A stretch of 64,000 nt of DNA from Psilocybe cubensis (GCA_017499595.2 CM039006.1:2294001-2358000), one strand, 5' to 3'; counted from the stretch's first letter, positions 30,918-64,000 are shown. Numbers and translations are program-made. The notes: generated by a model not told the origin, from the sequence alone.

Positions 30918-31320
30918 CACTGCGGGCTCCGACACATGTTTGATGTCAAACATCGTCAATCAAACAGATCTTATGTAAGATGACGATGTTTGATGTCAAA
31001 CATAAACTGTGGTTGGTGGCAAACGGGCATCAAACACAAGTTATGTTTGATAGCCATGTGATATCAAACACAACTTGTGTTTGACGCCTGTTTGTCAAAG
31101 AACATGGGCTTGACAGAATTTCTGTCAAGTTCGCTGTAAGATTACAAACGTATCTTGTGTTTGATAAATAGTGTTTGATTTCAAATATAATTTCTGTTTG
31201 ATAATTTGTGTCTGAAATCATCCACATATTCTGTATGTTATCTACCATAAACATCAAACAGAATGTATGTAAGAAATCAAACAGAATATCTGTTTGAAAT
31301 CAAACAAACAGTCAAACAGA
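30918..31320. repeat. CACTG terminus plus subterminal repeat array (TGTTTGA/TCAAACA)
   Basis: CACTGCGGGCTCCGACAC at 30918; 17 exact heptamer copies counted in both orientations, including TGTTTGATGTCAAACA twice. Confidence 0.8.
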
Positions 31321-31929
31321 CATCGACTCGCTTATCGTGTCGATAATCGCGCGATCAGGCGCGCGATCGGCGCGCGTTGAGCGACACGCCCGGCGATTTT
31401 ACGGCTGTATCGGCGTCTCGGTGATACGCGACGCGCCCTCACCAACGCTACATAGGCGCTTGTAAATTCAGCGACGAGAACTCACTCTCCAGTCGATAAC
31501 ACGGCATCGGCGACACATATTTACTCAGCGAGTAAAAAGGCATTTTTACTCAAATATATGTATTTCTGGTGCCCGGGTGTGTCCTACTACCATACATATA
31601 AATTCACAAAATTCTGCACATTCAAATCTACTTTTCTCCCTTCTTATTTCTAGACCTGTAGTCTGTATCTCACTGTAGTAGCATTGTATGTACTCACCTC
31701 AATGTATTGTATTCGTTTGACATCGTTTGCCATTGCCTTCTATAAAAATGATGTCTCTCAGAACAACTTTCTCGCAGTCTCTTATCACTAAATTACTCAC
31801 TCACCTACTCACTTCACTCGCCTCACTCGCTCACCCTCGCGCGCCTTACTCACTCATTCTCACTCGCTCACTCTCACTCACTCATCACCCTCGCTCAGCA
31901 CCTACTCCATCGACAACAACATCCGCATC

Positions 31930-32473
31930 ATGTCCACCATCGTCCGCAACGTCTTTTCTGGGTTGGTTTCCTTCGGCAACGGTGTCAAATACCTATTCGC
32001 GTCGGGGTGCGAGGTTGTAGAGTGGTTGTGCACGTACGGAGGGCCTGTTTTTGGGGCTGTAGCTCGCTATATCAACAAGCATAGCGATGCACTAGTTGTT
32101 CTGAGAAATCGTAACGGTATGTCAGTGAGGAGTTGTAGCTTCGAACCGCGTCTTACCGTTCCTTTTAGGGGGAAACTTGATCACCGACGTGGAGGCTCAA
32201 CACCCATCCGCCACCGACGCCGATTTCGAGGAATTCATCCGCGTTCGCCAGGAGATTAAAAACCTCAAAAAACTTCTCGACAATCGCAGCGCGCGTACTC
32301 GGCCTGGTACATCGGAAGCGCACGAAATTCAGCTGGACCGCTTCAAACTCGAGCGCAAGAATGTTCTCAACGACATCGCAATCGAGGCCCAAATACGTGC
32401 CACCTACCCTGCGCGAACCCTGTATCTCGCAATGTGCGAGACATACGATGTCCCTCCTGTCCGCACCAACTAG
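31930..32473 (+). CDS. Small two-exon hypothetical protein (~160 aa) with C-terminal coiled coil
   Basis: TATAAAA at 31741 and a CTCA-rich leader. Intron GTATGT...TTTTAG (~32117-32168) joins ...LRNRN to GGNLITDVEAQ... in frame. Confidence 0.65.
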
Positions 32474-32779
32474 GCGTCCCGGCGGGTTTTTCTTGTTCTC
32501 GAAGTGCCATATGCCTTCGTGTTCCCGTGTCAGTTTTCTTATTGTTTTCTTGTTGCTTTCGATTTGTTGCTATTGCTTTCAATTATTGTACATATTTCTC
32601 TAAAGTTTACCATCTGATTCGCTATATTGTATCATACCCGTTGAACATGGATATCTTTTCTGAACGATATAATTCAATAACGTTCGCGTACATCTGTATA
32701 TGAGAGCGATTAAGCGAGCGAATCCCACAAGTCAAGACTCTCTCTCGTCGATAAAAGCGCATTCCTCTCATCGTGATTC

Positions 32780-33840
32780 GAAGCTGCCCAGTGACGCCAC
32801 GTTCACATGGAACCGCCGCTCGTCGTCGCGGTCTTCATGCACTCACCATAACCACGCGACTTCTTCACCTCTTGCCCCTCCCGAAACTCGTCCCACACGC
32901 AGTCTGTTCAAGCAGACCCGTACCAGTCGCATGCCATCCCATCGCCACAGGGCCAATCTCGCTCCACACAACAGCCATCAGCGACACCTTCAGCAGCTCC
33001 ATCGCCGTGAACTCAGGTGGTCGCCCTGCTGCTCCCCCGCCTCCGCTAGAGCCTAAACCGAAAGGATACGAAGACGACGACGCGGACGAGTCCATACGGC
33101 CTCCTTCGTCTTCTTCCTCCTCCCCATAGTCCTCCATCATGTTCATCTCTCTGTCTTTTCCCTTCCCCTTTCCTCTATCTTTCTCCCGATCTCTCCCTCA
33201 TTCTCTCTCCATATTCCTAACACTCTCAAGCTCTTCATGTCCTCCACCTCCTCCCGGCCCCTCTCAACATCCTCGCAATACCGCCTCTGCATCTCCTCCG
33301 CCTCGTCCCGGCCCCTCTCCTTTAGCGCCGCCAGCTCCTCCCGATGCACCGCCGCGAGCTGCTCAATAGTCTGCTGCTGGCTCCGCCTCAGCTCGTCCTT
33401 GATCCCCTTGATCTCGCTCACGATTGCGTCCACCACGGGCGACGCCGACGACACCGCCGCCGCCGAGGGCACCGCGCCGCACCTCCATCCTGCTCAACAA
33501 ACTCCCTCGAAACCACCACCTCCCCTTCATCCGCCAGCGACGTCGGTCCTCCTCCTCCTAGCCCGGACGACGACGACGACGACGACGACGATGCACTTCC
33601 TGCTGCCGCTGCGGGTGGCGGAAATGGCCCTGCTTTGGGTTTAGGCGCAGCCGTAGCCGTAACCGGACCTGCAGGCGACGACGCGCCGGCGTGGTGTGTG
33701 AAATGGGCGAGTAGATTTTGAGCCCTGCGGGCCGGAGCGCGGGGTGGAGCGTGTCGATCGTGCGCGCGTTCGCAGCGGCCGAGGCGGATGCGGCGGTTCC
33801 GCCGCGTGGTGCGTTCGACGATGTGTGCCCCGCGCCGTGG
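32780..33840 (-). pseudogene. GC-rich captured fragment of an unidentified host gene (low-complexity and coiled-coil), frameshifted
   Basis: High-GC3 codons; segments PKPKAGPFPPPAAAGSASSS, VVDAIVSEIKGIKDELRRSQQ and PEFTAMELLKVSL lie in different frames. Confidence 0.4.
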
Positions 33841-33841
33841 T

Positions 33842-34902
33842 CAGGAAGGCCTGTATGTACGTCAAGAAGTTGGCTTCAAGAGCTGGAAAGAGGGAAATGT
33901 GCGGTGAATTAGGGGAGGTATTCATTTAGATGATTGATATTTACCTGAGGCTAGTGCGCCAACGATCAAGAATGTATCCTCGAGGACTGTTGAGGTCTTG
34001 CCTGCGGATTGGATAAGTTGGATAATAAGGGTCATAATACGGTCAGCAAGGGCTCTCCATGGATTTGGTTCTGAAAAAAATGAATGGTCAATAAAAAGTG
34101 TAACAAAACATGACGGAAATGATGCCAGAAGCTACCTGGATGCTGAGAAGATGCTCCATTCTCTGAAGGATTGTAACGGCAGTGCTTTGAACAACGGTAA
34201 TAACATCAGGTGTGGCCTGAATGAGATTGGAGGTGATAGCCTCATAAGCAGCAGTAATGTAGTTTCATGCCAACTACAGTCAGCTATGATTTGACATTAG
34301 ATTACAATTTCATAGAAATGCAGAGATGGTCACAACCCAACCAACGCTTGTTCCACTTAAGGAGCCATCTTATCGTAATAGAGACTCATGAACCGCACAA
34401 GACATCCAAAGGCGCCAACCTGAACGGCGACCGTGGCGTTCAGAGTCGCCTCACATGTAGTTACGCTCGCCCTGGTGATTTATCAGGTTCTGTATGATCA
34501 CACAATGGAGTAAATCAAAGCTTACATCGCGGTCAAGGTTCTCGCGGACAAACTCGAGAAAGTTGTACGCGTGAATAGCTGCGAGCTGAACTTCCGGGAA
34601 AGGGTCCTCCTATCGCGTGCCGTGAATGACAGCGGTCAAGATCTCGTTCGATTTCAGGCTCAGGAGCTCCGGTTTCTATGCCGTCACCAAAAAATCATGC
34701 TGTACAAGATAGGAATAGTATTAAAACCAAAAACACAACTCCCAATCGCCTCACAGATAAATCCAATGGTCTGAAGAGTCGCGATTCTGAGGTTGGCGTT
34801 GGCTCGGGTATTGACGAAGCCGAGCAGGATCTCGATCAACTCAGGCCAGTGCCCCGCTCTGGATGTTCGACAGCAGCGATAGCTGAGACATCCTGGGCAG
34901 CT
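33842..34902 (-). pseudogene. KAP95: Captured importin-beta-1 (karyopherin beta) fragments, introns retained, internal deletions
   Basis: Spliced pieces WPELIEILLGFVN..NLRIATLQTIGFICEAI / KPELLSLKSNEILTAVIHG..VQLAAIHA..LEFVREN / GERNY..QVGAFGCLVRFMSLYYDKM / LTVVGMK..TAAYEAI..ILQRMEHLL / LADRIMTLIIQLIQSAGKTSTVLED..GALAS / ALEANF..YIQAFL match importin-beta HEAT repeats. Confidence 0.85.
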
Positions 34903-35209
34903 GCCTCCATTGTCTAGAAGATCCAGAAAGAAAGAGATGAGCCCAATCGCGTTTGTTGACGCGCAGGAGCAGATGCAAACAGGCTACCCAAGTCATATAT
35001 CGGCGTTGACGCATGGTTCAAGGACTGGCGTTGGAAGGTAAGCCGGCATTTGGCTCGCGGTCGGTGCAGGATCTTTTCAAGGGGCGGATGTGCCGAATGT
35101 CGACCGTCGTGTAGTGTGTAGCTTCACTCGCCGAAGCAAATGGTGTCGAAAGCTGGACACCACTCTACACAGCGCCCCTGGACATCGTCGGATTTCTAGA
35201 CCTGTCGGG

Positions 35210-36458
35210 AGCATCAGCGACGCGAGATGATATATAATGCGGTCTTACTCACCTGTTCCCACCCAGAGGGCCCTGTCCGTTGGAATGGGGTCGTGGAGTT
35301 GAGTTGGAAGGCGCGCCAGTTATTCTGTAGGTGCGATGTGCCTAGTTGATTAGCATCGTGTAGTGCGCAGAGACAGGAATATCGGCGAATCTGCGAAACC
35401 AGGACGTACAGTAGCCATCTCTTCGGTCTTCGGTTGGCGTCCGTATGGTAGAGCACGTATAATGTCCTACTATACCTCTTGCGCGTCATTGTTCCGTCCT
35501 CATCTCATAGCAGAATAATTCCATTGTACACTAAGCTGATTCATGGACATGCATTGCTACATTACTCAATCTGAATGAGCTGCCTCAGCAGGTTCACCCC
35601 GCCGTACAGCCAGGAGGTGATGGGGACACAGGAAGAAGAAACCGTGAGAATCGGTCCAGCTCGCCAACATGTACCGCAGAAGTTTGATGCCGCTCATGCC
35701 GTCGCCAAATTGGTGATGCGCGTGATTGGTGGCACGGCATCAGCGGCATCAAACTTCTGTCCTGTATCATGGCGATTTTGTGACGGTGTGACGCCTTTCC
35801 ACCTCTCTCTCAACACTCACTCCTATGAAGCACGTCGTACGTAGAGATGGTTCGCATACGAGCTTACTGTAGTAGTAGCACTTTAGTGTAGACTCTAATA
35901 CCATAAACTTAGCTAGCTGCGTACTCTAGTAATACAATTTTAGTTCAAGTGACATAGACCCGGCTTGGAAGGGCAGAGGAAATAGTCGGGTGAGCAACAC
36001 AGAACGAGGAGGAACTACAATTCATTTGGATAGTGAATTACGCAGAAACATAGGTGCGAATAGTATTTGTATTTACTATCAGGCACAAAACACAAGCCAA
36101 AAACACATTCTACAGCACACCCGCCGCCTCTTCGCCTGCCAGACCCGTATTCGAGCGTCACAAACATAGGTGAGGAATCATCTTTGCTATCAGTGCAGGA
36201 AACATATTCTACAGCACATGTGCCGCCTCATTGCTTTACAGACCTCACTTATTCAACGACGCACCCACCTACATTCAAGAATTGAACGTTGAATGCTGCC
36301 ATAACTTTATGTTTTGTACGACGCTGCCTACTGTAAGCACCCGATCTGCGAGGTACCCTCTTTGCAGGTTGCCGTTTTAATTTGGATTTCACGATATCGG
36401 GACTTGTGTAGGATGTGCACATGGCTTCCGTCAACTCTCCTGCTAATGCAACTATATG
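35210..36458 (+). repeat. Non-coding repeat module, copy 1
   Basis: 35630-36458 is a close inverted copy of 53018-54550; 35250-35310 resembles 63468-63527. Confidence 0.85.
35677..35759. other. 83-bp hairpin (26-bp arms, 31-nt loop), copy 1
   Basis: cagaagtttgatgccgctcatgccgt ... acggcatcagcggcatcaaacttctg, one mismatch. Confidence 0.9.
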
Positions 36459-37599
36459 CAAGTCTATTCTCATCTGACACGAGTAACGTAAATATCTCAT
36501 TTACCCCCCCCCCCCCCCCCGTTGCTCTATTGAACCCCACAATTGGGATGACAGCCAGCGCTTTCACATGTTATTTACAACATCCTGATTTAATCAGGGG
36601 CTGCTAGAATTTTCGCTCATTCCGCACCTCGACTCGAGCCATATTTTTGAGAAGTAAGTTCAACCTTACACGCGTGTAGGCAACGCTCGTGTCCTTTCTG
36701 CCTCCGTACTAGTCTCTTGTTTGGTAAAGACCAATATGCTTTCTTACCACCTACATGAGATTATGAATCACCAGTTTCAGCAACGTTAAAAACAGTCGAG
36801 GTGTAATGAGAGCACCGCAAATAAGCTGCCTTATACTGAGAGCGAGCCTGCTGCGCCTTCTTTTCTGTGACCCGCTCGGCCCTGAAGACTCAATGGATGC
36901 ATATAGCACGGAAACCATATATCTGGAAAAGTAGAGACAATGCGGTGTCAGTAGGAATCGTTGGCGTAAAAATACCTGAGTAGAGCAACACGAAGGAGCC
37001 GGCATTTCAGCAAGCATAGGGTATGTCTAATTGCACAGTTAACAAACGTTTGACGGTTTTTATTCGCTAAAACTACATCTGCGCTAGATGATTGACCAGA
37101 TATATCTCCCCGGATCCGAATCTGTGTTGGCACACTGTTTTATTTTCCATTGCTCCTCTTGCGTGTTATCATTCTGTCCTCGTTTCATAGGGACTACATC
37201 TAGTATGTAGACTACATGTTCGACGCCGCTCATGCCGTCGCTTGATTGGTGATTGCGCCAGCATCACATGTCGCCCAATTATCTTATCTTATCGCTGTCA
37301 GAATAGACAAAACAGCAAGAGATCCCTTAAGACTGCCGGCGCAGCGCGATGGCAGGCGCAGAGCGAGACCTGTACTCGGATAATCCAAGGTGGCTTTACA
37401 ATACGGATTGGTTTAACGGGCAGCCTATGATCAGATCAGAGTGGTGAAAGTGTCAAAATGAGTGAAGGCGTTAACAGCCGTGATTCATACGAGTTCTGAG
37501 AACACACCCCCGAGATTGTGTGGTTCAGCAAAGAAACAAAAAGATGATTGAGATATCTGGATATGAAGAGCTGTTTGAATTGCACCAATGCTAACGGAA

Positions 37600-38660
37600 G
37601 GCCACAACATATGTGCTTGTGGGACTCGATGAGAGCCATGAGCAATTCACATAAGATAAACACAGTCCGGCTCGATATGGTGCAATCCAATTAAAACAGC
37701 ACCTGCAAAGGGGGTACCTCCTAGACAGAATGCTTATCGTAAGAAGCATCGCAGAAAAAAATATGGCAGCGTTCTGTGAGTGTGGCGTCGTTTATTAAGT
37801 GACGTCTGTCAGGCGACGAGGCGGCGCATATAGAATATGTTTTCCATACTAGTGATAGCAAGATGATTCTCACCTATGTTTCTGTGTAATTATGTGACCT
37901 CGAATGAAGGACTGGTGGGAGAAGAGGCGGCGCGTATGCTAGAACATGTTTTTGGTTTATCTTCTCTGTACTGATAGCAAAAGATGATTCTCACCTATGC
38001 TTTTGCATAATTCACCAGCACATGAATTGTCATGTTCACCGGTCTTTGAATTAAAGTTATTATGGTGTTAAAATCTACGTTAAAGTATCCCTACCGCTAA
38101 GCTAAATATTTGAATCGAATTTACATTCGACCCGCCGCATTGGAGAGTGGGGGTTGTCAGAGGAAGAAAGGCGTCACACCGTCACAAAATCGCCCTGATA
38201 CAGCACAGAAGTTCGATGCCGCTCAAGCCGTCGCAACATTGGTGATGTGCGTGATTGGTGGCACGGCATGAGCGGCATCGAACTTCTGCGGTACATGTTG
38301 GAGAGCTGGACATATTCCCACGGTTTTCCCTTCTTTCCTGCGCACCATCCTGGCCACGACGTTTGGCGGGGCTGGTGAACCTGAACCTGTCGAAGCAGCA
38401 CGTTGAGATTGAGTAGCGTAGCAATTTATGTACATGGACTAGCGTAGTGTGCAATGTATATAGTACTAGATCAGAGGAAATATTCTGCACGTCAGAGGCA
38501 TGGGGATCATATAGACTCTACCACCCGGTGCGATGTCTAGCGTACGCCCTGGTTTTGTAGGAGGTATGATGCTGCACATTTGGTCAGTTATCCACACAGA
38601 TCCACCTTTAGTGAACAGAACATCTCTTGGTTGGTGAGTCGCAACTCCAGTCTACCCTTC
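37600..38660 (-). repeat. Non-coding repeat module, diverged copy 2 (inverted relative to copy 1); hairpin at 38206-38288
   Basis: Matches 53040-54880 in direct orientation, e.g. aattaaaac.gc..cctgcaaag.gggtacctc, gatagcaaagatgattc.tcacctatgttt, aaaggcgtcacaccgtcacaaaatcgcc, gtcgcaactccagt.taccc. Confidence 0.8.
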
Positions 38661-39022
38661 AATAGCAAAGCACACTGACTGCTTGCGGACCGTCCCGACC
38701 GTCCCAAGGAAAATTACAGACTGCTTGCTGAGCGTCCCTGGAAAAACTACACTCACTTATTTCTTACCGAAGGTGCTCGTTGCACCGTCTGCTTCGTCTT
38801 GCTTCACTTAGGTATATTCGGTACACTCTACGTGCAATTTCTTACAACTATAAACTTAGATTGAGTGCGTCGCAGCAAAGGAGGCCACAGGGCAGCTCTT
38901 AGCACCCACAAGACAGCTCACCTCCTTCCTTATGTTTTTACTCCAAGGTAAGCGTTCATCTCATAGCCGTTTATTAGCTGAAATTTATCGTTTCCGTAAC
39001 AGTACTGCCTAATCCCTACTGT

Positions 39023-39941
39023 CTATTCTGCATCATTGACTCCTGCGATGTTGGCAAGGGCAGCTCGAACCCGAGCGCTTTCCCTCCTCCCCTCGACACG
39101 ACGATGTGCCTCCGCCCTATATTTCAGCTTCAACTTCAACACGCTATGAACTGGCCAACATTTATCGTAATCCCTGAGAACCGGCCAACGCCTAGTTGCC
39201 TACCACGTGTGTCAGCCTTGCTTTTGAGTAGTAAAACAAACTGGTAATTACCTCTTGACATATTGCTTCAATTTTTTCCTTTTTCTGAGATCTGTAGCTT
39301 TTACTCATATCCAGCGACCTCCTTGCTTCTCGGGTGATGTATCCCTACGGACAAAATCAAGGCATCAGTCAAGTATGGTGAGCCACTATTGATTTACATA
39401 CCACCATATCTCCTATATCTTCCTCAGACCAGTGGAAGTCGTCCCTCAGGACTGTCTGGATATTAAACCCACCACTTCCCCGACGGCCAGGTTCTCCCTT
39501 TGGCTTCTTATACATTTCGCCTCCTGGGACCGGCGAAGTCACGCGAGGATGAGAAGGCCCCGCCACTTGGAGGATCATAGCGGGATCAATGGGTTGCCCA
39601 GGATCGACCTGCACATGAGTTGCTGGTGTTGCAATTGAAGGCCCGATTGGAGGGACAGGTACGGTGTCCTGGCCTGAAGGTCCCTCTGCCTGTATGAGCT
39701 CTTCAGGCCCTGGAGCTGCGACGGATGATGGCTGTGGCGCGGCTCCACGCGGAATGGCGTGTCGCTGTAGCAGCTCTGGAGTCCATTGGATACGAGGGGT
39801 AATCTTAGGTAGAGGTTCTTGACTGGGTAAGAGGAATTCGATCCGGGGAGTGATGAGGGGGAGATGACGAATGTATTCGTGTGAAGGATGCGAGGATGAC
39901 ATGGTATATGTCGAGGAAAGATTGTGCGTTTTTCTTTTCAT
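39023..39941 (-). CDS. Three-exon hypothetical protein: Pro-rich N-terminus and KPKGEPGRRGSGGFN...W / YDKCWPV helical domain
   Basis: ORF 39369-39941 spliced to GYITREARRSLDMSKSYRSQKKEKIEAICQE and ATRRWPVLRDYDKCWPVHSVLKLKLKY...* via GT-AG introns with CTGA(C/T) branch sites. Confidence 0.7.
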
Positions 39942-40488
39942 TCACTATTTGTAGTTTCGTATTCGTCGCTCAATCATCCCCTTTGTTTATTCTATGTAAC
40001 GTCTCGCTCTTCCGCAGACACTCATCCTCAGTGTGCACGTCAAATCTCAGTGCACGTCAAATACGCACCAATTGTTTCGCAAAGTCGCTCTGCTAGTGTC
40101 AAAGATTGTTTGATCGATATCTTCTCACCGTAGGGGTAACCATTGATCGCTACCTATCATTCTTTCATCAATATCTATTTCAGGGAGGGCTCAAGAAAGC
40201 ATCATTTGTCTCTACAATGAGTGAAAACCCCAATGACAATATTATCAGACATTGAGCCTTAGTTATACTGAAAATGAGCCTTAGTTCCAATATGAATACG
40301 GTTTGGCGAAAACGTGACAAAAAGGCGACACGACTCAAAGGGAGATGTTATCTTTGACGAGTTATCTGTGACTCGTCAATGGCCAGTGCCAAGGGTGTCA
40401 CAATGACTTCCGGCGGCGCTGGCGGTAAAGTACTTAAAGAGCAGGAGTTATCACCAGTCGTAAACGATTCAAACCATCAGCACCCGCC

Positions 40489-42318
40489 ATGGCAAGTGTA
40501 AGCTTTGCATCCTGTAGTTGTCGCCCGCTGACATGTTCGATAGGAGAATTTCGCAATATTCAGAACATATAAGTTGCCATCCATTCTGCCTATCAACACT
40601 TTATTGTTCTCAGAGGACGCTAGACTCTTAATATCTGGCGGTGAGTCTTTTCCTATCGTCAGTGTTAGGTAATCTTTAATAAGAACAATATCATACTTAG
40701 GAGATGACGAGACGGTATATGTCTTGGACACAAAAACGGGGGAATGCATTCAAACTCTTGAGGATGACAACTGGGGACAAATCACCACAGTTGTCTGGGG
40801 ACAACAGGAGTTACCCAACAGAGAAAACGGCGTTGTGTTATGCATTGGCACGGGGAGAGGGTGTTTGGCGTTGGTTGCGCTAGACTATGATGCCACCAAA
40901 GTACTTCTCTTTCTCGTTTCAACTTCCTGTGTCCTTACATTCTGTATATCATTCCTTAGCCATTCCCAGTAGGCGCGAACACATCTCCTGTATTTGCGTT
41001 CAATGACTCTGTCGAGAAAATGGCTTTCGACAAGCTCAACAATCGATTAGCCGTCACAAGTCACTCCGGTGAGATCAAGGTTTTTGCAGTAAACAACAGT
41101 AAGTACTCTTGTCAATCGCCCTAGCACTCAAACCACACGAATATGGTACTCCTAGCTTCCTTGAGGTTATTGTGGGCCGATAATATTGGCAAAGTGATCA
41201 CCAGCGGCCTATTCTTTTTTGGGGGGTCGAATCAAAGCCTCTTGACCATCGGGTTGGAGACATCGGAAATGTGCGTTGATGTTTCTGTTTCCTTGCAATA
41301 TATTCACGAATTTCTACCACAGGAAGTGCCTCGATGCTTCAAAGAGAGGTCCGCCATTATGGACGAAACATTTGATTGGTGGGATGTACGTGCTACTTTA
41401 TGGAAACCCTCCATTATTTTGATAAATTTTTGAATATTTGACAGTGGAAGCGCGTCTCTGTCCAGCGATGAAACGTTGCTTCTTGTAGACAACCTTGCTA
41501 CCGGTAACTTCGACGTCTATCAGATCGCCGACAACTCCCCTCTTCGTTCCCTGCCAATAGGCTCGACCCGTCGATTTTCCAAGCAATGCGCCTTCTTTGA
41601 AGGTTCGAAAATAGCAGTTTGCGGCAGTGACACCAATAAAGTTTTCATTGTGGATGTCGCAAACAACTATGTTGTTCAGACACTGACAACATGTCGAGGT
41701 TCGACTTTTCGCTTACCTCCGCATTTCAGTTTATTAATTTGTGGACTTAGGTACTTACATGACACAAACGGTCTGTGTTACTCCATCGTCATCGCGCAAC
41801 GTCTTTGTCGCCGCCGCATGTCGTGGCTATGTATATATCTGGGAAAAATCAACTCCTCAAGTCCAGGTAAATGTTTGCGCAGATGACCCTCCCCCTTCGA
41901 GGTACCGTCGCGTTGGATCCGCTATTTTGCCTTACCTGGGATTTGCTGTCGCTGGTACTGTCGGCCATTGGTTACCACACGCCTGGAAGGTGAGCAGCTT
42001 ACAATCCTTTTGGCATTTGACAAACTAATGATATTCAAGTTGGGCCAAGACATAATCATGAAGACTGCTGATTATCTCATCCAGAATGGCGCAGATAGGA
42101 CGATGGAACTTCCAAGAGAAGCTGTTGACAAAATCTTCGAGATGGCGGCAGCGGCCTCGAGGGCTTTGGATATGTCGTCGGCACTGGTGTCGTCGAGGAC
42201 TCTCGACATGGCTGCTATTGCTACAACAACATACACGGCTGCTACTGCAACTGCTACGATGACATCCCCTTCTGCTACCTCTCTTTTTGACATGGCAGCA
42301 GCAGCGGCTGGCCATTAG
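40489..42318 (+). CDS. Multi-exon WD40-repeat protein with hydrophobic / Ala-Thr-rich C-terminus
   Basis: PINTLLFSEDARLLISG-GDDETVYVLDTKTGECIQTL, WGQITTVVW, VTSHSGEIKVF, LLVDNLATGNFDVY, AVCGSDTNKVFIVD, GYVYIWE; about 8 short introns. Confidence 0.8.
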
Positions 42319-42466
42319 AATCTGCATCTGCGTATCCTTCTAATTTGAAACGTGCCCTAGATTTCTTTTGTACATTTATGATATCGGATAATGACATTTT
42401 GCTGAGTAACCTGACTACATGCATCGAAGCTATGATCTACACAGTTTTCCATTATGTTCTCAGTGG

Positions 42467-53017: not shown

Positions 53018-55788
53018 CTATAGTTGCATAAGCAGGAGACTCGACGGGAGCCATGTGCAAATCCTGTATATTCCAAGTCCCGATATCGTGAAATCCAAAT
53101 TAAAACGGCAACCTGCAAAGAGGGTACCTCGCAGACCGGGTGCTTACAGTAGGCAGCGTCGTACAAAACATAAAGTTATGGCAGCATTCAACGTTCAATT
53201 CTTGAATGTAGGTGGGTGCGTCGTTGAATAAGTGAGGTCTGTAAAGCAATGAGGCGGCACATGTGCTGTAGAATATGTTTCCTGCACTGATAGCAAAGAT
53301 GATTCCTCACCTATGTTTGTGACGCTCGAATACGGGTCTGGCAGGCGAAGAGGCGGCGGGTGTGCTGTAGAAGGTGTTCTTGGCTTGTGTTTCCTGCCTG
53401 ATAGTAATAAAATACGATTCGCACCTATGTTTCTGCGTAATTCACTATCCAAATGAATTGTAGTTCCTCCTCGTTCTGTGTCGCTCACCCGACTATTTCC
53501 TCTGCCCTTCCAAGCCGGGTCTATGTCACTTGAACTAAACGTTCAATTCTTGAATGTAGGTGGGTGCGTCGTTGAATAAGTGAGGTCTGTAAAGCAATGA
53601 AGCGGCACATGTGCTGTAGAATATGTTTCCTGCACTGATAGCAAAGATGATTCCTCACCTATGTTTGTGACGCTCGAATACGGGTCTGGCAGGCGAAGAG
53701 GCGGCGGGTGTGCTGTAGAAGGTGTTCTTGGCTTGTGTTTCCTGCCTGATAGTAAATAAAAATACGATTCGCACCTATGTTTCTGCGTAATTCACTATCT
53801 AAATGAATTGTAGTTCCTCCTCGTTCTGTGTTGCTCACCCGACTATTTCCTCTGCCCTTCCAAGCCGGGTCTATGTCACTTGAACTAAACGTTCAATTCT
53901 TGAATGTAGGTGGGTGCGTCGTTGAATAAGTGAGGTCTGTAAAGCAATGAAGCGGCACATGTGCTGTAGAATATGTTTCCTGCACTGATAGCAAAGATGA
54001 TTCCTCACCTATGTTTGTGACGCTCGAATACGGGTCTGGCAGGCGAAGAGGCGGCGGGTGTGCTGTAGAAGGTGTTCTTGGCTTGTGTTTCCTGCCTGAT
54101 AGTAAATAAAAATACGATTCGCACCTATGTTTCTGCGTAATTCACTATCTAAATGAATTGTAGTTCCTCCTCGTTCTGTGTCGCTCACCCGACTATTTCC
54201 TCTGCCCTTCCAAGCCGGGTCTATGTCACTTGAACTAAAATTGTATTACTAGAGTACGCAGCTAGCTAAGTTTATGGTATTAGAGTCTACACTAAAGTGC
54301 TACTACTACAGTAAGCTCGTATGCGAACCATCTCTACGTACGACGTGCTTCATAGGAGTGAGTGTTGAGAGAGAGGTGGAAAGGCGTCACACCGTCACAA
54401 AATCGCCATGATACAGGACAGAAGTTTGATGCCGCTGATGCCGTGCCACCAATCACGCGCATCACCAATTTGGCGACGGCATGAGCGGCATCAAACTTCT
54501 GCGGTACTTGTTGGCGTGCTGGCCATATTCTCACGCTTTCTTCTTCTTCTGTTCCAACCATGCTCATCTAGCGGGTGAAGTAGCACATATAGACCGAGTA
54601 GCGCTGCTATCCATGTAGGCAGTCTAGCGTAGTGTACCATGTAAATAATACAAATACTACTACAGGGAGCGAAATGGGGACCGAATGATATTGTGCGTGA
54701 GGTGTAATCGAAGTGCCAACACAGATGTTAAGCACGTATGAGATCTCTACGCTCGCCGTAAGTAACACAATTTTCTGCACAGTGTTGTATATTGGGTCAG
54801 TCATTCAGCGCAGATACAGGTCAGCGAACAAGACATCGCAAAAGTTTCGAAGCATGTCTGGTAAGTCGCAACTCCAGTGTACCCGCCGTTTGCTAACCAT
54901 GCGATTAGACGCACACGATTCTCACTCAAGTCGTTCGTTTCACCATTTCCTTCCTCTTGTTCTACACAGGTATGTTTCGTTCTGTCTACCTAATTTTCTG
55001 TAGTAACTTACATAGTATAGCCCATCTCCTATCCCGAACACCAACGATCCGCACTATGCGCTATTAAGCAAACAAGATCCCGGACTTGTCATCGTTCGGA
55101 TACCGGTGTTCCTTCCAACTCAACTCCACAACCCCTTTTGCACGGATAGGGCCCTCTGGATGGGAATAGGTTATCAGAATTGCATTGCATGATGTGTAGA
55201 GCGCGTATACGCAGACGTATGACTGGGTAAGTCTGTTTACGTCGCATGTCCCATGGCATTCGCTGATATACCTGACAGACCCTGATTCCCATATCCTCCA
55301 TGCACATTGCGCAGGTGGATGACATTCGCATCCTTCTCTCTGTGCAGAACGAGCATCGCTGAGAGTGCACGATAAAATACCAATCAAGTAAGTAGCAGGT
55401 TCACTTACCTTGACGCTTCCACTGATTTGCCACATCCAAACTTTGGCTAGCAAGTCGTCGAACCTGGATGGCCAGCGAGGGGTCCATCGTCGCCCGACAC
55501 GAACGCATGTACTTCAGTCGTGGAGACGTGTAGGCTCGAGCGGGAAACTGGGGCAACATTAATGTACGTGGCTGAACGAAGACGGCTGCGCACAGTACTC
55601 ACTCCTCACACAGAGTTGCAACGCCCGTCCTTTGCTGTGTCCTCTCCATTCCATCGGTTGCATCAACGTTTTAGGGCAAACCATGACATATACAGAAGGT
55701 CATCATTTCGCGAGAGTACGTTTTTCGTCTTCTGTCTCTCTTTCTTAAGCACCAGGTTTTGATCTACAACTTCTCCTTAGCACGCTAT
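53018..55788 (-). repeat. Non-coding repeat module, copy 3 (longest); hairpin at 54419-54501
   Basis: Left part is inverted against copy 1; right part (54636-55788) is inverted against 62848-64000. Confidence 0.9.
53191..54238. repeat. Tandem triplication of a ~350-bp unit
   Basis: Units start acgttcaattcttgaatgtagg at 53191, 53539 and 53889 and are nearly identical; a single inverted unit sits at ~35940-36290. Confidence 0.95.
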
Positions 55789-58700
55789 TTCGAGTCCAAT
55801 TTCGGGCAAGGACAGAATTCAAGTCTGCGATTATAGATTGTGAGCCCCTCTTTATTCAGTCTATGCGTTACCATAACCAACGCCCTGGTTATATTTGAAG
55901 GACCTTCAATCTGTCTCAAGAACGGTGCATTTCCTATTACAGGTCGATCCCATTTGGTTCTAGCACCATTTCCGTAGAAAAGATACACCCCAGAGCAGAC
56001 AACTGATGCAACCCTTATTGATTTATTATTTAGTGATCTTTGCATGCTGCCTGCACGCTTACCTACTGTGATCCTTGATGTTGAGAGCAATGCCCATCCT
56101 AGCCTAAGAGTTGGCATGTAAAAATAGATGTCGTTTGCGCATTTGCTAGTTAATATGATCTTCCCCCTGTAATTCTCATTTTCCAGGTCAATTATATTTC
56201 TGAGTATCGCGCGGACTACATAAGCGTAAAGTCAATTATTAACCGTTGAAGCCGTTTGTCTGGCTGTCCTTATGAAAGCGGAGATCTTTCTGGTTTAACC
56301 GCATTTTGGACGAAGGACTGAATAACGTGCGATGCATTGTGAATATATCTTTGTACATACATAGAAGCATGAGATTAACAGCTAGAATCTTTGTGACAGG
56401 AAATATCCGAGTTGATTTAAAAAAGTGATTCTACGCCTACTCCCCGAAAAATGGTTTTGCATCTTTCATTTTCAAGAGCGCTATATCATAACAAGATAAG
56501 CAGGCCCGCCAAGAAGAATAGTAATAATTTTCTGGACGCTGATCTGGAGCTGGTTGATAACCTTCCCGTGCGGATTGTAGTCTTCTGCGTTTAAGGGGTC
56601 GGCTACCTGGTCGTCTGGTTCCATTGACGCTTGTAGCCGGTCGCAGGCTATCAGCGATCTTTAATGGAGTCAGGAGCTTTGGGTTGCGCCATTGCGTCAA
56701 AAGGACGACTGTGGAATCTTCTCCGTCTGTTTCGTCTTCGCTCATTCCATCTTTGCCAAGTGTCAAGACGACATCTGCAATATCATGACGACCGGCATCT
56801 ATGCAGTTACTATAACGGTCCACATACAACTTCTCCGACATTAGCAAAGAAATTGTGTAAGTGTAAGGAAACAGATATTGACATACATTACGTTGCCTAG
56901 TGCGGCGCCGCTTCCTGCGATTGGCATTTAGACGTTCCTCCCTTACGCGATCGAAACATTGTTCGCTGGTTTCTCCTGGCCTTGGAACGATGGAAATCAA
57001 TTTCTCACGAAACATTTGCACTCTTGCCATGAAGTGTTCCTTGATTTGATCGGCAGTAGCATTAAGATTGCTGTGTAATCGCAAGAACTGTTCAGCAAAG
57101 AGGTCCGCAAGATAAGCGTTCCATTTCACTTTCACTTGGTCGAAGTGAAGTTGAAGAGGTTCCAATGGTGGGGGGTCTCGTAGCGAATTCTCGAACTTAT
57201 CTACTTCGGCTGGTGATGCAATGTGAATGGAATCCATTATGAAGATGTCGTCATCTTCGGATATTCCGAGGAGATATTGTTGTAACTGCCGGCTGGCATT
57301 CTAAAAAATCATATTCAGTCAATGGATGATGTGGAGGCGAAAAGAATACTACTAGAATAAGAACTCTGTCCGCTGAGCGGGGACGAACAGGACCAGCTTG
57401 CTTGTAAGGAGAGTAAGGTTTCCTGTTTGGAATCCTCCTACGAGGGGTTGCAGGTTGTGTATTTGCATTAGACCGAAGTTCTTGCACGTCCGAAACGACG
57501 CCTCTCACATCACTCGACAGAGTGCTTAGCGTATTCAATATTCTTTCTTGAAAAGCACGTTCAGCAGCAGATACTGAGGCAACAGGAGGAACAGGAGTGA
57601 CAGGAGGCGTCGAAGAGAATACAGAGTGAGGTGGAACCACAGAGGGGTCAGCGACCGTTGCCGGAGTATCTGCATGGAAGGCTGTCGAAGCCTCGACTCC
57701 TCGCACATCGTCTCGACCAGATCTGGGTATAGCACTGGAAGGTGGAGGTGGAGATTGATGTGTAGCTCTACCTCTTCGATAGTGACCCGGCTTTGAAAAT
57801 CTGTTGGGTATTGATGGCCCTGGATTGGAAGAAGAGGCCAGGTCACCGTCTCGGACGGGCGAAGAACGGTTCGCAGAGGTAGAGAGAGTGGGAGTAAATT
57901 CCGTTTGGTTAAAAAAATTTGAAAAGGTGGGTCGTTCTGCTGAATTTTCTGGCTCCATATTTACCTGCAGGTCGCCGTTCCTATGGTTCATCTAAAGGAT
58001 ATTTGACTTCAGTTATACCAAATAAAGTGGCGGTAGTCGGTATCTTACAAACGTATAGACAGGTGTGCTGCCTACGATATCCGGTGTTGGCTGGAAACAC
58101 TTTCCTGGTAGTTTTTTTGATAACCTTGAAAAGGGCGAACGCTGTGGCCATTCTTTGGGCATATCATTCATCTGCAGGACATTGTTAGCGACATGTGGCC
58201 AAGCTACAACACCGCTAATTGTCTTACAAGCGTATATAGGGTGGTATCCGGCATCATCGACATTTGACGACGTTTGCCCGCCGCTTTTTGAGATTTTCCA
58301 GTCGCCGACGGAGTACTTTCTGGTGCATCCGGGTCCATCGCCTATGGAGTTTTCATTAGATATACATCAAAAGATACAATTAGAAGTAATTACCGAGTCC
58401 GAATCTTGCGCTTCCTCTCCAAATTCGATGTGGTCAGCCATGGTGGCCTCTAATTGACTGTTAAGAATTGAGATGGCTTTTTGAGAGTCCACAAGGTCGC
58501 TTTGTAAAAGCTCCAACAGTGACTTGGTATTACCATGGTCCTCAAATTCTTTTTCAAGAGCGGCCTTGACAGTACTGAGATCTTCAGTTGTTTGAGATAG
58601 CGCTGCTTGTTGTTTTTGAAACTCAACGGACATCTGTTGGTATCGCTCCCGTTCTTTACTAAGTGAATCGCGAGAGTTGGTCGCGGCTTGTTCCAACTCC

Positions 58701-59071
58701 TTTTCGAGGTCTCGAACTCGTGCGTTAAGCGTTTTAATTTGCTCACTGCGCTTTTCACGCACAGTTTGGAGTTCTGAAGCGAAAACATTCTCGCGATGGC
58801 TTGATAATTATTGTGCTTGAATCAATTTCTCCCTTTTGCTGTCAGACTCCTGGAGACGAGCCTGTAAGTCACCAATGCGATTTTCAAGTTGCTGGGCATG
58901 AGAGGTTGACTCCTCCCTGGACTTCTTCAGTTCTGCAGTCTTCGCGTCTAGATCGTTGTTGAGTTGAACGATACGGTTCTCTCTGTCGATACCATCAGTT
59001 AACTGTCCCTCAAGCTCCTGAACAGCACGCGTTAGCCTTGACGACTCCGCCTTCTGATCCTTCAAATCAGC

Positions 59072-60590
59072 ATTGAGCTTCGCTATCTCAGCCTCGTCAG
59101 CGGTCCTACGCTGGGTAGACGCCGCGCGCAGTCTCTCCAGCTCCTGACCTTGATCTTTAAGTGCAGTTTGATTTCCGGACAATTCGTTTTCGAGGAGTTG
59201 CACTTGGGCAGTAAGCGTTTTAATTTGCTCACTGCGCTTTTCGCGCACAGTTTGGAGTTCTGAAGCTAAAACATTCTCGCGATGGCTTGATGATTGTTGT
59301 GCTTGAATCAATTTCTCCCTTTCGCTGTCAGACTCCTGGAGACGAGCCTGTAGTTCGTTGATGCGATTTTCAAGGTCTTGGGCGTGAGAGGTAGAATGCT
59401 TCAACTCTTCAAGTTCGGTCGTCTTCGCCCTCACAAGAGCTTCAAGTTCCGTGATACGCTCCTGCTTGCTGATACCATCAATAGACTGTCCCTCCCGTTC
59501 TCTTTCGAACTCCCCAAGACAAGCCTGTAGTTCGTTGATGCGATTTTCAAGGTCTTGGGCGTGAGAGGTAGAGTGCTTCAACTCTTCAAGTTCGGTCGTC
59601 TTCGCCCTCACAAGAGCTTCAAGTTCCGTGATACGCTCCTGCTTGCTGATACCATCGACAGACTGTCCCTCAAGCTCCTGAACAGCACGCGTCAGCTTTG
59701 ACGACTTCGCCTTCTGCGCCTCCAAATCAGACTCAAGTTGTTTTACACGAGTCTCGTAAGCAGACGCATTCTCGATAGAGGCTGCGTTCATTATCTCGAG
59801 CTGTTGAACCCTATTTGTCTGTGCCGTCAACTGAGCTTCAAGCTTTTGAATGTGGTCGGCGTCCAAGGCACCACGATCAGCGGATGACTGTTGCGAATCC
59901 TTGAGCGCCTTCAAATTAGCATTGAGCTTCGCTATCTCAGCCTCGTCAGCGGTCCTACGCTGGGTAGACGCCGCGCGCAGTCTCTCCAGCTCCTGATCTT
60001 GATCTTTAAGTGCAGTTTGATTTCCGGACAATTCGTTTTCGAGGAGTTGCACTTGGGCAGTAAGCGTTTTAATTTGCTCACTGCGCTTTTCGCGCACAGT
60101 TTGGAGTTCTGAAGCTAAAACATTCTTGCGATGGCTTGATGATTGTTGTGCTTGAATCAATTTCTCCCTTTCGCTGTCAGACTCCTGGAGAGAACCCTGT
60201 AGTTCGTTGATGCGATTTTCAAGGTCTTGGGCGTGAGAGGTAGAGTGCTTCAACTCTTCAAGTTCGGTCGTCTTCGCCCTCACAAGAGCTTCAAGTTCCG
60301 TGATACACTCCTGCTTGCTGATACCATCAATAGACTGTCCCTCCCGTTCTCTTTCGAACTCCCCAAGACGAGCCTGTAGTTCGTTGATGCGATTTTCAAG
60401 GTCTTGGGCGTGAGAGGTAGAGTGCTTCAACTCTTCAAGTTCGGTCGTCTTCGCCCTCACAAGAGCTTCAAGTTCCGTGATACGCTCCTGCTTGCTGATA
60501 CCATCGACAGACTGTCCCTCAAGCTCCTGAACAGCATGCGTTAGCTTTGACGACTCCGCCTTCTGCTCCTCCAAATCAGCATTGAGCTTC
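59072..60590. repeat. Nested in-frame coding repeats: 849-bp offset duplication, each copy containing a 180-bp (60-aa) duplication
   Basis: EGQS(V/I)DGISKQE(R/C)ITELEALVRAKTTELEELKHSTSHAQDLENRINELQ x4; QTVREKRSEQIKTL x3. Confidence 0.9.
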
Positions 60591-61462
60591 GCTATCTGAG
60601 CCTCATAAGCAGTTATTTGCTCCGTAAACGCCATATTCGAATCCTCGAGCTCCTTGATATGGGACGTGTCCTCTTCCAAGATATTGGACCCCTCTCCATT
60701 GGGTTCATTTAGCAATATTTTCGCAGTTTCTGATTCTTCAAGACTGTCTTCCACCAGAGATGAAATCTGAAGAGACTGGGATTCAACCTTTTTGTTTAAT
60801 TCCTCCACCGTACGGTCATGATGAATTTGGAGTTCTTCGATTTGTTGTTTGAACTTTGCTTCCAGCTTGAAAACAGCTAGCAATGAGAGGCTGATGCTTC
60901 TGATTTTTGGTAGACTACATACCTCAGACATTTCGTGCTCTTTAGCACGGGATGCTTCTTTATGTTGGCGATCCACGTCCTGTTCGATGCTTAAACGCAG
61001 GTACGATAACATGAAGCCTGGGAAACGTACTCGTTTATAGTCTTCGAATTGGGATTGTAAGGTCTTATATGCCCCATCAGACGCCGATTTCTCTTTGGAT
61101 ATCTGGATGATACATTACTATTAGTACATATATCTTTCCAATAATCAAAGTCTCAACCTTTTGCTCTACAACGCGAAGGTGTCGAATTTCAGCATCTTTC
61201 AAATCGTTGACGCTCGGCTCTATGCTCTGAAGGCGCTTTATTTCTTTATCCTTCGATTTGAGCTTCTTAGTCAACTCATCAACCTTGAATACAACGGTAT
61301 GTTGAGTTAAAATTTGAGACGGCAATTGAAGTGAGTTACCGCGAACTCGAGTTCTTGAAGATACTCAGGCTCGACTGCAATTAACTTTCTCGACGATATC
61401 TCTTCATGATCACTCCTTTTTCGCTTGCCCGATTCTTGTGGTTTGAGAATCTGGGACTGTAA

Positions 61463-61618
61463 TTGGGGAGTCTGGGACGGTCCTGGATGATTGCGGGCGT
61501 CGTCGTCGCTGGAGGTGATATCCATTTGCTCTGTAGGGGATTGGGGAGTCTGGGACGGTCCTGGATGATTGCGGGTGACGTCGTCGCTGGAGGTGATATC
61601 CATTTGCTCTGTAGGGGA
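61463..61618. repeat. 78-bp coding tandem repeat x2
   Basis: SPTEQMDITSSDD..RNHPGPSQTPQ twice. Confidence 0.9.
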
Positions 61619-62005
61619 GCTGTTGAAGGCTCCCGGCAGAGAGAGATTTTCCATCGAAGCGTCGTCCATGCTTGGATCTGGTGTGATGATTGGGAGTGGC
61701 GCTCTTACAAGATGGAAATACTGACGATCAAGTATAAGCCATGCCAGGTTCTTTGTCAAAGGACGAGCAAGTGAACACACCGTATCTTCCTTTGTTAAAT
61801 GCGCCGCGCCGAACCGGCGCGGATTGAAGGAAGCAAGTGCATGCCCATTCGCGTGCTTTTGATGGAAACCTGGGCCAAACAACTTCTTTGTATCAAAGGC
61901 GTCGTGAATGATTATGTTAAAACTCACTGGTCCTGTACCTTCAACCTCTCTTTCAACCCTATACACCCACATTCACCCTCTACCGTCATTCAGTCCCGCC
62001 AAACT

Positions 62006-62571
62006 ATGGTTTCTGCACTTGCTAAATATATCCCACGGACTAGGGTGAGCAATTTCGCGAGGATACTTGACGTTCTTCTTAAGGATTCCAGGACACCTCG
62101 CTATCATTAAGAGCGCGCTACTATGGCGCGCACGCAGAAAGACCCGTGAACAAAGCGATACACACCCTTCAGAACACAAACGGCAGAAGCCCCCGTCTCG
62201 ACCTGGTCATGGGAGGGAAACGCCTGCAGCCATACATCCACGATGCTATTGTTTCAATTTCGAATAGAGGGAAGATTGCGCAGTTTCATGTCTTTGTCAA
62301 GAACCATTGCAGGCTCCCCCCTAACAGAAGCATTCGGAGATGGAGAGTGCGCAATTGGAAGGGTGATATTGTTGTCTTTAAGAAAGGAAAACACCAAGAA
62401 TTGGTAAACCTCGGGGGGCGCGACAGAATTTTAGCTGATTTTGCGACCAAAAGGTGAGGCCGGATGCCAATATGAAGTTTGACGACACTAACAACCCCTA
62501 GTTTCATTCAATCAGTGAATCAAACCAGGCCATTCAAAATCCCGAAAAACCTGTTTTTTGTAAAGCATTAG
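62006..62571 (+). CDS. Three-exon small basic hypothetical protein
   Basis: MVSALAKYIPRTR / DTSLSLRARYYG...PYIHDAIV..FHVFVKNH.RLPPN..WKGDIVVFKKG..VNL..RDRILADFATK / FIQSVNQ..KH*, joined by GT-AG introns. Confidence 0.65.
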
Positions 62572-62847
62572 CCTGCATGAAAGCACCGACAACGAATCCA
62601 CAGACCAGCGGTGCACAAAGACTGTCTGCGTTAGTAGACTTCGTGTTATCTTCGGTCACACTTGCACGATAGCATTCGGTCGTCATTTCATAGCAGAAAA
62701 GTCCCCCGTAGTACTGTTGTTTACGTTGTACGCTACGGTAGACTATTGCTGCGCTTTTTCGGTCTGTATGTGGTACTTCACCCTCCAGATGTCCATTCTG
62801 CGGAGGGCCCGCCCTTGCGGATGATGGCTAGTATCTCGGGCGTAAGT

Positions 62848-64000
62848 ATAGCGTGCTAAGGAGAAGTTGTAGATCAAAACCTGGTGCTTAAGAAAGAGAG
62901 ACAGAAGACGAAAAACGTACTCTCGCGAAATGATGACCTTCTGTATATGTCATGGTTTGCCCTAAAACGTTGATGCAACCGATGGAATGGAGAGGACACA
63001 GCAAAGGACGGGCGTTGCAACTCTGTGTGAGGAGTGAGTACTGTGCGCAGCCGTCTTCGTTCAGCCACGTACATTAATGTTGCCCCAGTTTCCCGCTCGA
63101 GCCTACACGTCTCCACGACTGAAGTACATGCGTTCGTGTCGGGCGACGATGGACCCCTCGCTGGCCATCCAGGTTCGACGACTTGCTAGCCAAAGTTTGG
63201 ATGTGGCAAATCAGTGGAAGCGTCAAGGTAAGTGAACCTGCTACTTACTTGATTGGTATTTTATCGTGCACTCTCAGCGATGCTCGTTCTGCACAGAGAG
63301 AAGGATGCGAATGTCATCCACCTGCGCAATGTGCATGGAGGATATGGGAATCAGGGTCTGTCAGGTATATCAGCGAATGCCATGGGACATGCGACGTAAA
63401 CAGACTTACCCAGTCATACGTCTGCGTATACGCGCTCTACACATCATGCAATGCAATTCTGATAACCTATTCCCATCCAGAGGGCCCTATCCGTGCGAAA
63501 GGGGTTGTGGAGTTGAGTTGGAAGGAACACCGGTATCCGAACGATGACAAGTCCGGGATCTTGTTTGCTTAATAGCGCATAGTGCGGATCGTTGGTGTTC
63601 GGGATAGGAGATGGGCTATACTATGTAAGTTACTACAGAAAATTAGGTAGACAGAACGAAACATACCTGTGTAGAACAAGAGGAAGGAAATGGTGAAACG
63701 AACGACTTGAGTGAGAATCGTGTGCGTCTAATCGCATGGTTAGCAAACGGCGGGTACACTGGAGTTGCGACTTACCAGACATGCTTCGAAACTTTTGCGA
63801 TGTCTTGTTCGCTGACCTGTATCTGCGCTGAATGACTGACCCAATATACAACACTGTGCAGAAAATTGTGTTACTTACGGCGAGCGTAGAGATCTCATAC
63901 GTGCTTAACATCTGTGTTGGCACTTCGATTACACCTCACGCACAATATCATTCGGTCCCCATTTCGCTCCCTGTAGTAGTATTTGTATTATTTACATGGT
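62848..64000 (+). repeat. Non-coding repeat module, copy 4; near-identical inverted repeat of 54636-55788, runs off the window
   Basis: Coordinates pair without indels (sum 118636). Identical spurious ORFs on opposite strands; one substitution noticed (YPCK vs YPCE). Confidence 0.95.

Follow-up and report, generated by a model that had tools for sequence, protein, structure and literature searches.

Introduction

Plant transposons of the En/Spm type have CACT(A/G) termini, subterminal arrays of short motifs and a TnpD-like transposase, they capture host fragments and they can reach a large size. A second point of reference is provided by the Starships of the Pezizomycotina, which are known from Ascomycota, are moved by a tyrosine-recombinase "captain" and are far larger. 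Thirdly, specialised paralogues of the elongation factor NusG/Spt5 have been described, among them bacterial RfaH-type factors that work on acquired DNA, plant SPT5L/KTF1 (RDM3) and ciliate Spt5m. To our knowledge, Spt5 is the sole transcription factor conserved across all life. Here we compare these systems with a stretch of 64,000 nucleotides from the mushroom Psilocybe cubensis (GCA_017499595.2 CM039006.1:2294001-2358000), which we call the window. On balance we think it probable that its right part, positions 30918-64000, is a mosaic and probably recombinant copy of a large multi-gene CACTA/EnSpm family of Agaricales that encodes a paralogue of Spt5.

The gene content of fungal CACTA/EnSpm elements has barely been described so far. 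According to the passages cited here, such elements are common in Agaricomycetes (PMC5751038). In the sections of Kojima (2025, PMC12730594) on which we draw, fungal EnSpm and Plavaka families carry TET/JBP genes. The same sections give 5'-CAC..GTG-3' termini and 3-bp target site duplications (TSDs) for fungal EnSpm, TGT..ACA termini for PlavakaA and CATCA..TGATG termini for PlavakaB (PMC12730594). For the bacterial paralogue RfaH, activation of xenogenes is reported in the part cited here (PMC7593976). A literature search returned neither an Spt5-like gene nor the present gene set for CACTA/EnSpm elements; the supplements of PMC12730594 (family sequences, Table S1, Figure S2), which lay outside this search, may hold related families.

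The element in the window resembles plant En/Spm in its CACT(A/G) terminus, in subterminal arrays in both orientations, in a Transposase_21 enzyme and in the capture of host fragments. Unlike in plant En/Spm, no TnpA homologue was recognised here; instead we found a WD40 gene, two small genes (Y and Z), a coiled-coil/DUF8263 protein of about 1500 amino acids (aa) and an Spt5 paralogue, and neither a second terminus nor a TSD was visible in the window. The families of Kojima, as far as the cited sections describe them, are likewise Agaricomycete DNA transposons with an additional gene that presumably affects silencing, and the CAC end fits them. They differ in cargo, since the element carries Spt5L, WD40 and coiled-coil/DUF8263 genes and no TET/JBP gene was detected in Pfam scans of the tested open reading frames (ORFs), and its terminus is of neither the PlavakaA nor the PlavakaB type given there. 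With Starships it shares being a large fungal mobile element with several non-transposase genes; unlike Starships, it has a DDE transposase, and its accessory genes form a fixed family set and not a variable cargo. As with the known NusG/Spt5 paralogues, a diverged extra copy of a universal elongation factor exists beside the housekeeping one, whereas this copy is encoded by a eukaryotic DNA transposon.

The family described here shows a fixed multi-gene set, including a full-length Spt5 paralogue, that appears to travel with a DDE transposase. If it is true that this paralogue serves the expression of the element, it would represent a new route of a eukaryotic transposon past host silencing, testable in a tractable mushroom. 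The locus also calls for caution, because a clean terminus together with a compositional boundary does not equal one element: it was read depth that revealed the mosaic.

Materials and Methods

Read depth was obtained from the raw-read runs X11 and X12 and from the contigs of runs X6 and X7, representing four strains, and covers positions 27001-47000. Reads were counted at an identity of at least 95%. A single-copy sequence should reach a depth of about 35x in X11 (1632 M letters over about 46 Mb of contigs per run) and about 38x in X12. For comparison with relatives, the 31 closest transposases were aligned and 80 related metagenome loci (L-numbers) were compared, which include the near-duplicates L002/L003, L054/L055, L052/L057 and L017/L018. 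All window ORFs of at least 50 aa in 30.9-64 kb served as tblastn queries against the 80 loci with the low-complexity filter on, a setting under which coiled coils can be hidden. Pfam scans were run on 30 ORFs in 31-64 kb; ORFs shorter than 120 aa were mostly left out. Neighbourhood in a sister family of Psilocybe cubensis was deduced from consecutive accession numbers and locus tags.

Results and Discussion

Terminus and Boundary at 30918

A CACTA/EnSpm-type terminus, CACTGCGGGCTC, is located at 30918-30929 on the plus strand and reads inward, that is rightward. It is followed at 30930-31320 by a subterminal array in which TCAAACA/TGTTTGA motifs occur in either orientation. Of 29 such motifs in the window, 17 fall within 30937-31312 (376 nt), and the initial 450 nt of the element end hold 12 copies of the 8-mer ATCAAACA. 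The composition of the DNA changes at the same place. The GC content rises from about 0.33 left of the boundary to 0.42-0.61 right of it, through position 64000, and the observed/expected ratio (o/e) of CpG, which is only 0.07-0.27 in the AT-rich DNA of 12-30 kb, jumps to 0.95 in 30-32 kb and stays at 0.83-1.2 beyond. A preliminary description of this DNA, made from the sequence alone, had proposed a CACTG end with a dense array at a sharp AT-to-GC/CpG boundary, and the analysis bears this out.

Data from the other strains point to the same nucleotide. In X11 and X12, 101 and 107 reads, respectively, match from exactly 30918 rightward, while their left flanks differ (agreement 0.4), and one X6 contig also breaks at 30918 with yet another flank. 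Only the first ~88 nt of the terminus are multi-copy (about 4-5 copies). At least 13 of the 80 loci also carry the motif CACTGC(T/G)GGC downstream of their related transposase, on the minus strand; in six (L016, L023, L038, L045, L052 and L054) it follows the stop of the transposase by about 0.5-0.8 kb. The first 10 nt of the window terminus are identical to the right terminus in four loci, where this end occurs in two different flanks (L054/L055 and L052/L057). As in these relatives, the window terminus is placed 3' of the transposase and points inward. We conclude that position 30918 is a genuine CACTA/EnSpm-type terminus and shares its lineage with the internal transposase. By the termini that the cited sections of Kojima give, it is an EnSpm end (CAC..GTG) and belongs to neither Plavaka type.

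A matching inverted terminus (...GCCCGCAGTG) was not present in the window, where minus-strand matches with up to two mismatches right of 30918 were confined to coding or repeat sequence. The flank is visible on the left side only and reads ..TAT. Among the related loci, a candidate left terminus at position 5186 of L054 was rejected, its flanks not matching, and three loose-end motifs from the other strains had no match in the window. One metagenome contig, L053, holds at 57-483 an element of about 430 bp with the termini CACTGCTGGCAC and CACTGCTGGCGC and an inverted repeat of about 40 nt. This is a miniature derivative of the family; its flanks, TTA and GTA, are ambiguous as a duplication.

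Genes Right of the Terminus

The DDE transposase of CACTA/EnSpm type comprises four large exon ORFs at 42470-46300 on the minus strand. Its ORF 43864-45597(-) matched Pfam Transposase_21 (PF02992) with 34.1 bits (cut-off 28.6), and the gene sits 11.5-15.4 kb inside the terminus, in agreement with the earlier proposal of an En/Spm transposase about 12-15 kb from the end. We identified 123 relatives of this transposase, the best being 52% identical, and all four ORFs are conserved in related loci according to tblastn. The Plavaka model of Pfam stayed below its threshold in a relative (19.4 bits versus 26.3), and the Pfam scans of 30 ORFs, in which most ORFs below 120 aa were left out, detected no recombinase.

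A second gene encodes a WD40 beta-propeller protein of about 500 aa and is spliced (40379-42315, plus strand). Over the WD40 query exon, the match to the Psilocybe cubensis protein P0159 is 99% identical; P0159 maps to 40379-42315 and scored above the cut-offs of Pfam WD40 (PF00400; 30.9 bits versus 27) and ANAPC4_WD40 (30.3 bits versus 22.9). In one annotated assembly this gene is found in five dispersed copies that are 97-99.6% identical. Divergently oriented to it lies gene Y (39026-39941, minus strand), a conserved family gene recognised by tblastn for which Pfam, the Protein Data Bank (PDB) and the Atlas gave no lead. The small gene Z (62083-62454, plus strand) is conserved in the family as well by tblastn; for Z and for an ORF at 32.1-32.5 kb no PDB relative was found.

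The Spt5 paralogue, Spt5L, is encoded at 48300-51313 on the minus strand. The predicted protein has an acidic N-terminus, an NGN domain, several KOW domains and TPAWDPSSRTP repeats. The window protein matched Pfam KOW with 31.7 bits (cut-off 22.3), and the NGN model was matched by the family members P0121 and P0166 with 28.1 and 28.3 bits, respectively (cut-off 22.4). A profile of the family recovered solved Spt5 chains with E values from 5e-44 (8qsz_Y) to 4e-27, and Arabidopsis RDM3 (8hyj_W) with 3e-29. Among the matches listed, the best relative is 44% identical, and Spt5L scores weakly on the Spt5 models of Pfam. This low identity among the listed members and these weak scores speak against Spt5L being the canonical SPT5. 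Nor does it look like the single-copy housekeeping gene, as it adjoins a transposase and its sister subfamily has at least five copies in one assembly.

The largest gene, here named CC-X (56440-61669, minus strand), encodes a coiled-coil protein of 1578 aa that contains 59-aa repeats and whose C-terminus is formed by a DUF8263-like domain, the X domain (ORF 56440-57300). What had been described as a large coiled coil and this ORF are parts of one gene, represented by the P. cubensis protein P0173, which is 100% identical over the X ORF. The lead to DUF8263 comes from the ESM Atlas (score 0.96), where the domain is carried by 19-25% of the cluster members. The profile of this DUF8263-like domain had no PDB relative, and we found no mention of DUF8263 in the literature. 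The coiled-coil part at 58811-61114 is built of 177-nt (59-aa) repeats and contains an 849-nt duplication with 98% identity; the number of repeats in this part probably varies between copies.

The preliminary description had listed at least seven further intron-containing genes next to the transposase and had spoken of a transcription and ubiquitin toolkit. The Spt5-like, WD40 and coiled-coil genes could be confirmed, together with Y and Z. The ubiquitin part is weak. It depended on a RING-like gene at 46766-48149(+), for which the ORF 47841-48149(+) gave sub-threshold matches: zf-RING_5 was hit with E 0.037 and 14.4 bits (cut-off 27.9) over the second half of the model only, TRIM23 was hit with E 0.079, and by tblastn the gene was found in none of the 80 related loci.

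The Accessory Genes Accompany Related Transposases

A homologue of an accessory gene lies beside the related transposase in 25 of the 80 loci, and in 13 of the 16 loci that are at least 11 kb long. WD40 was found in 18 loci, Y in 15 (E<=1e-3), the X domain in 11 and Z in 6. The order of the genes varies. Locus L001 shows X, transposase, WD40(-) and Y, which is the window order read from the other strand, while in L003 the Y/WD40 pair is inverted. The Spt5L ORF of the window itself had no direct match in the 80 loci. Members of the Spt5L family, on the other hand, matched L003 at 13588-14556 and L002 at 12425-13423, beside the closest transposases, and the Spt5-like gene of L003 scored 30.7 bits with KOW2_Spt5 (cut-off 28.9). 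Of the linkage of transposase, RING, Spt5 and WD40 genes that was to be sought at other loci, the WD40 (18 of 80) and Spt5-like (two loci) parts were recovered and the RING part (none of 80) was not, and the order is not constant.

A sister family is present in the annotated P. cubensis assembly. Its X domain is 34-36% identical to that of the window by tblastn (39% by phmmer) and its Spt5L 42%. All five NCBI-annotated CC-X proteins of this family have an Spt5L protein at the neighbouring accession number. Furthermore, Z is 59% identical to the first 117 aa of P0166, an Spt5L model of the sister family, so that Z is fused to Spt5L in this model. In the related loci, 13 right termini had no left terminus upstream within the locus, over up to 13.5 kb, and the related elements are therefore large. 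From these comparisons we conclude that the lineage has a conserved accessory set, which includes the WD40 protein, the coiled-coil/DUF8263 protein and the Spt5 paralogue. The earlier proposal of a conserved accessory gene set is thus upheld by the 25 loci and the sister family, and it is its other half, a single mobile unit, that is not supported by the depth and repeat data given below.

Read Depth and Repeat Units Point to a Probable Mosaic

Between the terminus and the core of the element, depth differs strongly. Over 31.0-35.67 kb, X11 and X12 reached 0.6 to about 19 and 0.5 to about 16 per bin, respectively, with the peak caused by a short multi-copy piece near 32.3-32.4 kb, and the contigs had depths of 41-69 (X6) and 18-26 (X7). 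This region, including the subterminal array, is single-copy in X6 and X7 and nearly uncovered in X11 and X12. In the bin 35672-36338 the depth is about 410 in X11 and about 350 in X12, with bin means of 738 in X6 and 285 in X7. Over 37-47 kb it is about 140-185 per bin in X11, about 105-160 in X12, 249-269 in the contigs of X6 and 75-85 in those of X7. The core at 37-47 kb is accordingly present in about 4-5 near-identical copies in all four strains, which is consistent with the five WD40 gene copies of the annotated assembly. Single contigs of high depth lie on this core, 9044 bp from 39478 in X6 and 10275 bp from 38267 in X7. Both were aligned to 47000 and, judged by their sizes, reach about 48521, so that they would cover the RING-like gene.

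A repeat unit, U, composed of the parts B, T and A, recurs in four copies of 1-2.7 kb in alternating orientation, as the preliminary description had noticed for a module between 35 and 64 kb. U1 (35522-36456, plus strand; whole unit 35.2-36.46 kb) consists of a T part at 35522-35622 and an A part at 35623-36456, with a 115-nt hairpin at 35661-35775. U2 (37623-38672, minus strand) is an old copy inside the multi-copy core, 70-74% identical to U1 and U3 in alignments. U3 (53019-55788, minus strand) aligns as an A' part with three tandem 350-bp units, followed by T3 and then B. U4, or B' (62848-64000, plus strand), is an inverted copy of B that is cut by the window end and is preceded by a partial T-like piece at 62717-62791. 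Two ends proposed within these repeats were rejected. The inner CACTA sequences at 35529 and 54634 with a TA duplication are no termini, the homology of the four copies running about 25 nt beyond CACTA, and CACTGATAGC in the 350-bp unit has an identical 6-nt flank in all copies.

Up to about 35622, U1 and U3 share about 60-70% identity (estimated by eye from the alignment); starting at 35623, they share 96-97%. The change in depth, at 35.67-35.7 kb, coincides with this break. The simplest explanation of such a pattern is that two related elements recombined or underwent gene conversion. The stretch of 4.7 kb adjoining the terminus, single-copy, variable between strains and with captured fragments, would then have been joined inside U1 to a core of 4-5 copies.

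B (54636-55788) and B' (62848-64000) are inverted repeats with one mismatch in 1153 nt and flank CC-X and Z. Since Z directly precedes Spt5L in the sister family, the 7-kb CC-X/Z segment looks inverted in the window. The nearly perfect repeats of 1.15 kb may allow this segment to invert, and CC-X/Z may thus be an invertible module.

Weighing the Explanations

On the mosaic reading, the DDE transposase would act on the CACTG ends and the subterminal motifs in cut-and-paste movement, the accessory genes (Y, WD40, Spt5L, CC-X and Z, interleaved with the four U copies right of the terminus) would travel with the element, and the join would have arisen when two related elements recombined or underwent gene conversion. 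Several points weigh against this reading. The apparent absence of 31.0-35.67 kb from X11 and X12 may mean a divergence of more than 5%, given the identity rule for reads, and the 88-bp terminus could owe its 4-5 copies to small derivatives, as in the 430-bp element of L053, and not to copies of the core. Both high-depth contigs stop near 48521 inside Spt5L, so either the copies diverge there or the unit ends there, and most of Spt5L, CC-X and Z (47-64 kb) lies outside the range of the copy-number estimate. As the loci include near-duplicate pairs, counts over 80 loci do not equal independent events, and the sister-family neighbourhood was read from accession numbers and locus tags and not from coordinates. 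Finally, RING, the ORFs at 31.9-33.8 kb and the coiled-coil part of CC-X were found in none of the 80 loci, where the filter may have hidden coiled coils.

The preliminary description had seen in 30918-64000 a single, complete CACTA element longer than 33 kb that extends to a matching terminus beyond 64 kb and moves as a single cargo unit. The genuine inward-facing terminus on the 3' side of the transposase, placed as in relatives, would suit such a unit, as would family genes spread across 39-62.5 kb, the uniform, CpG-normal composition of 31-64 kb and the lack of any further family terminus in 30.9-64 kb; the closest relatives, L001-L003, likewise lack termini in 12.9-19.9 kb. We nevertheless regard it as rather unlikely, because 31.0-35.67 kb is single-copy or nearly uncovered against 4-5 copies of the core in four runs, because the identity break within U1 falls on the depth step and because neither a right end nor a TSD or an empty site came to light. 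The same join could instead be an artefact of assembly, through a mis-join at the high-copy A module either between the left part and the core or in the order of segments between repeat units. Position 64000 coincides exactly with the edge between B' and T, beside the high-copy T/A part, which suggests that the window end is a contig broken at the A module, and the depth of this module is around 400, about 11x single-copy. Independent contigs of X6 (34938-35715) and X7 (34938-35698), however, enter the A part of U1 by about 75-90 nt, and with only about 0.8 kb the A module is easily spanned by long reads, so that we consider a mis-join improbable. That the Spt5-like, WD40 and coiled-coil genes are ordinary single-copy host genes beside a solo transposon end and a transposase, part of the outcome that would have undone the earlier proposal, is largely refuted and to our mind very improbable. 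In its favour, none of the genes is interrupted, but WD40 occurs in five dispersed copies and the core has 4-5x single-copy depth, 25 of the 80 loci have WD40, Y, X or Z next to a related transposase, CC-X adjoins Spt5L in all five sister-family cases, and the identity of Spt5L, 44% at most among the listed members, and its weak scores on Spt5 models speak against canonical SPT5. The reading as a mosaic, probably recombinant copy is the one we prefer.

Spt5L may serve the element's own transcription. A more far-reaching idea, which we put forward tentatively and hold to be doubtful as a whole, draws on the analogy with bacteria: a large mushroom CACTA/EnSpm lineage, with a largest form above 33 kb, would encode the Spt5 paralogue as an element-specific elongation or anti-silencing factor, together with the WD40 protein and the giant coiled-coil/DUF8263 protein, long, perfect inverted repeats inside it would let its gene modules invert, and the paralogue would be the eukaryotic counterpart of RfaH-type NusG paralogues.

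Further Features of the Window

The copy-specific segment next to the subterminal array, at 31321-35670, contains a CG-rich repeat, a set of GC-rich ORFs at 31.9-33.8 kb on the plus strand, an importin-beta fragment and a paralogous exon at 35236-35320. The importin-beta fragment, ORF 34687-34983(-), matched 1ukl_A residues 108-162 with E 3.5e-4. Of the captured host fragments proposed before, this is the one that could be confirmed. A contig of X7 has a loose end at 34971. Within the element, 407 bp at 36736-37142 lack a counterpart in X7, X11 and X12, and 169 bp at 36848-37016 lack one in all four runs; both stretches are thus short insertions confined to the copy in the window. Neither an Rfam family nor a tRNA gene was found.

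The 350-bp unit is repeated three times in tandem at 53190-54239 in U3, with 99% identity, and U1 holds one unit. The junction 36406/53073 is represented by 247 loose-end reads in X11, equal to about 12 copies, which exceeds the 4-5 copies of the core. In the related locus L008, an internal inverted repeat is present three times (50, 3068 and 7568) and brackets a Y/WD40 block and the transposase, which resembles the alternating U units of the window. This locus had been a candidate for a complete relative of 7.5 kb and was rejected, as the flanks outside its terminal inverted repeat (TIR) are also homologous in the three copies.

Left of 30918, outside the element, the window consists of old repeats, one younger copia-type retrotransposon and two Tc1/mariner copies. 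The Ty1/copia-type long terminal repeat (LTR) retrotransposon at 5777-12192 matched rve, RVT_2 and gag_pre-integrs and has LTRs of 242 bp that are 98% identical. Its insertion looks young, because its CpG content is normal (o/e 0.8-0.9) within CpG-depleted DNA. The Tc1/mariner-type elements at 12936-14557 and 23929-25550 (HTH_Tnp_Tc3_2, DDE_3) are 98% identical to each other and have TIRs of about 213 bp each. Differences between strains at 12000-30900 are mostly transitions, in X11 72 C>T, 70 G>A, 50 A>G and 45 T>C against 5-10 for each transversion. This bias and the depletion of CpG fit a methylation-linked decay of old repeats. A stretch of 2.29 kb at 28036-30321, homologous to 21.1-23.5 kb, is skipped in all four runs (joint 28035->30322) and is a strain-variable repeat insertion. 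Within the old repeats, CACTGCTGGCAC at 14735-14746(+) matches the right terminus of L032 and L038, and also the small element of L053, without a difference, and may represent a decayed end of this CACTA family.

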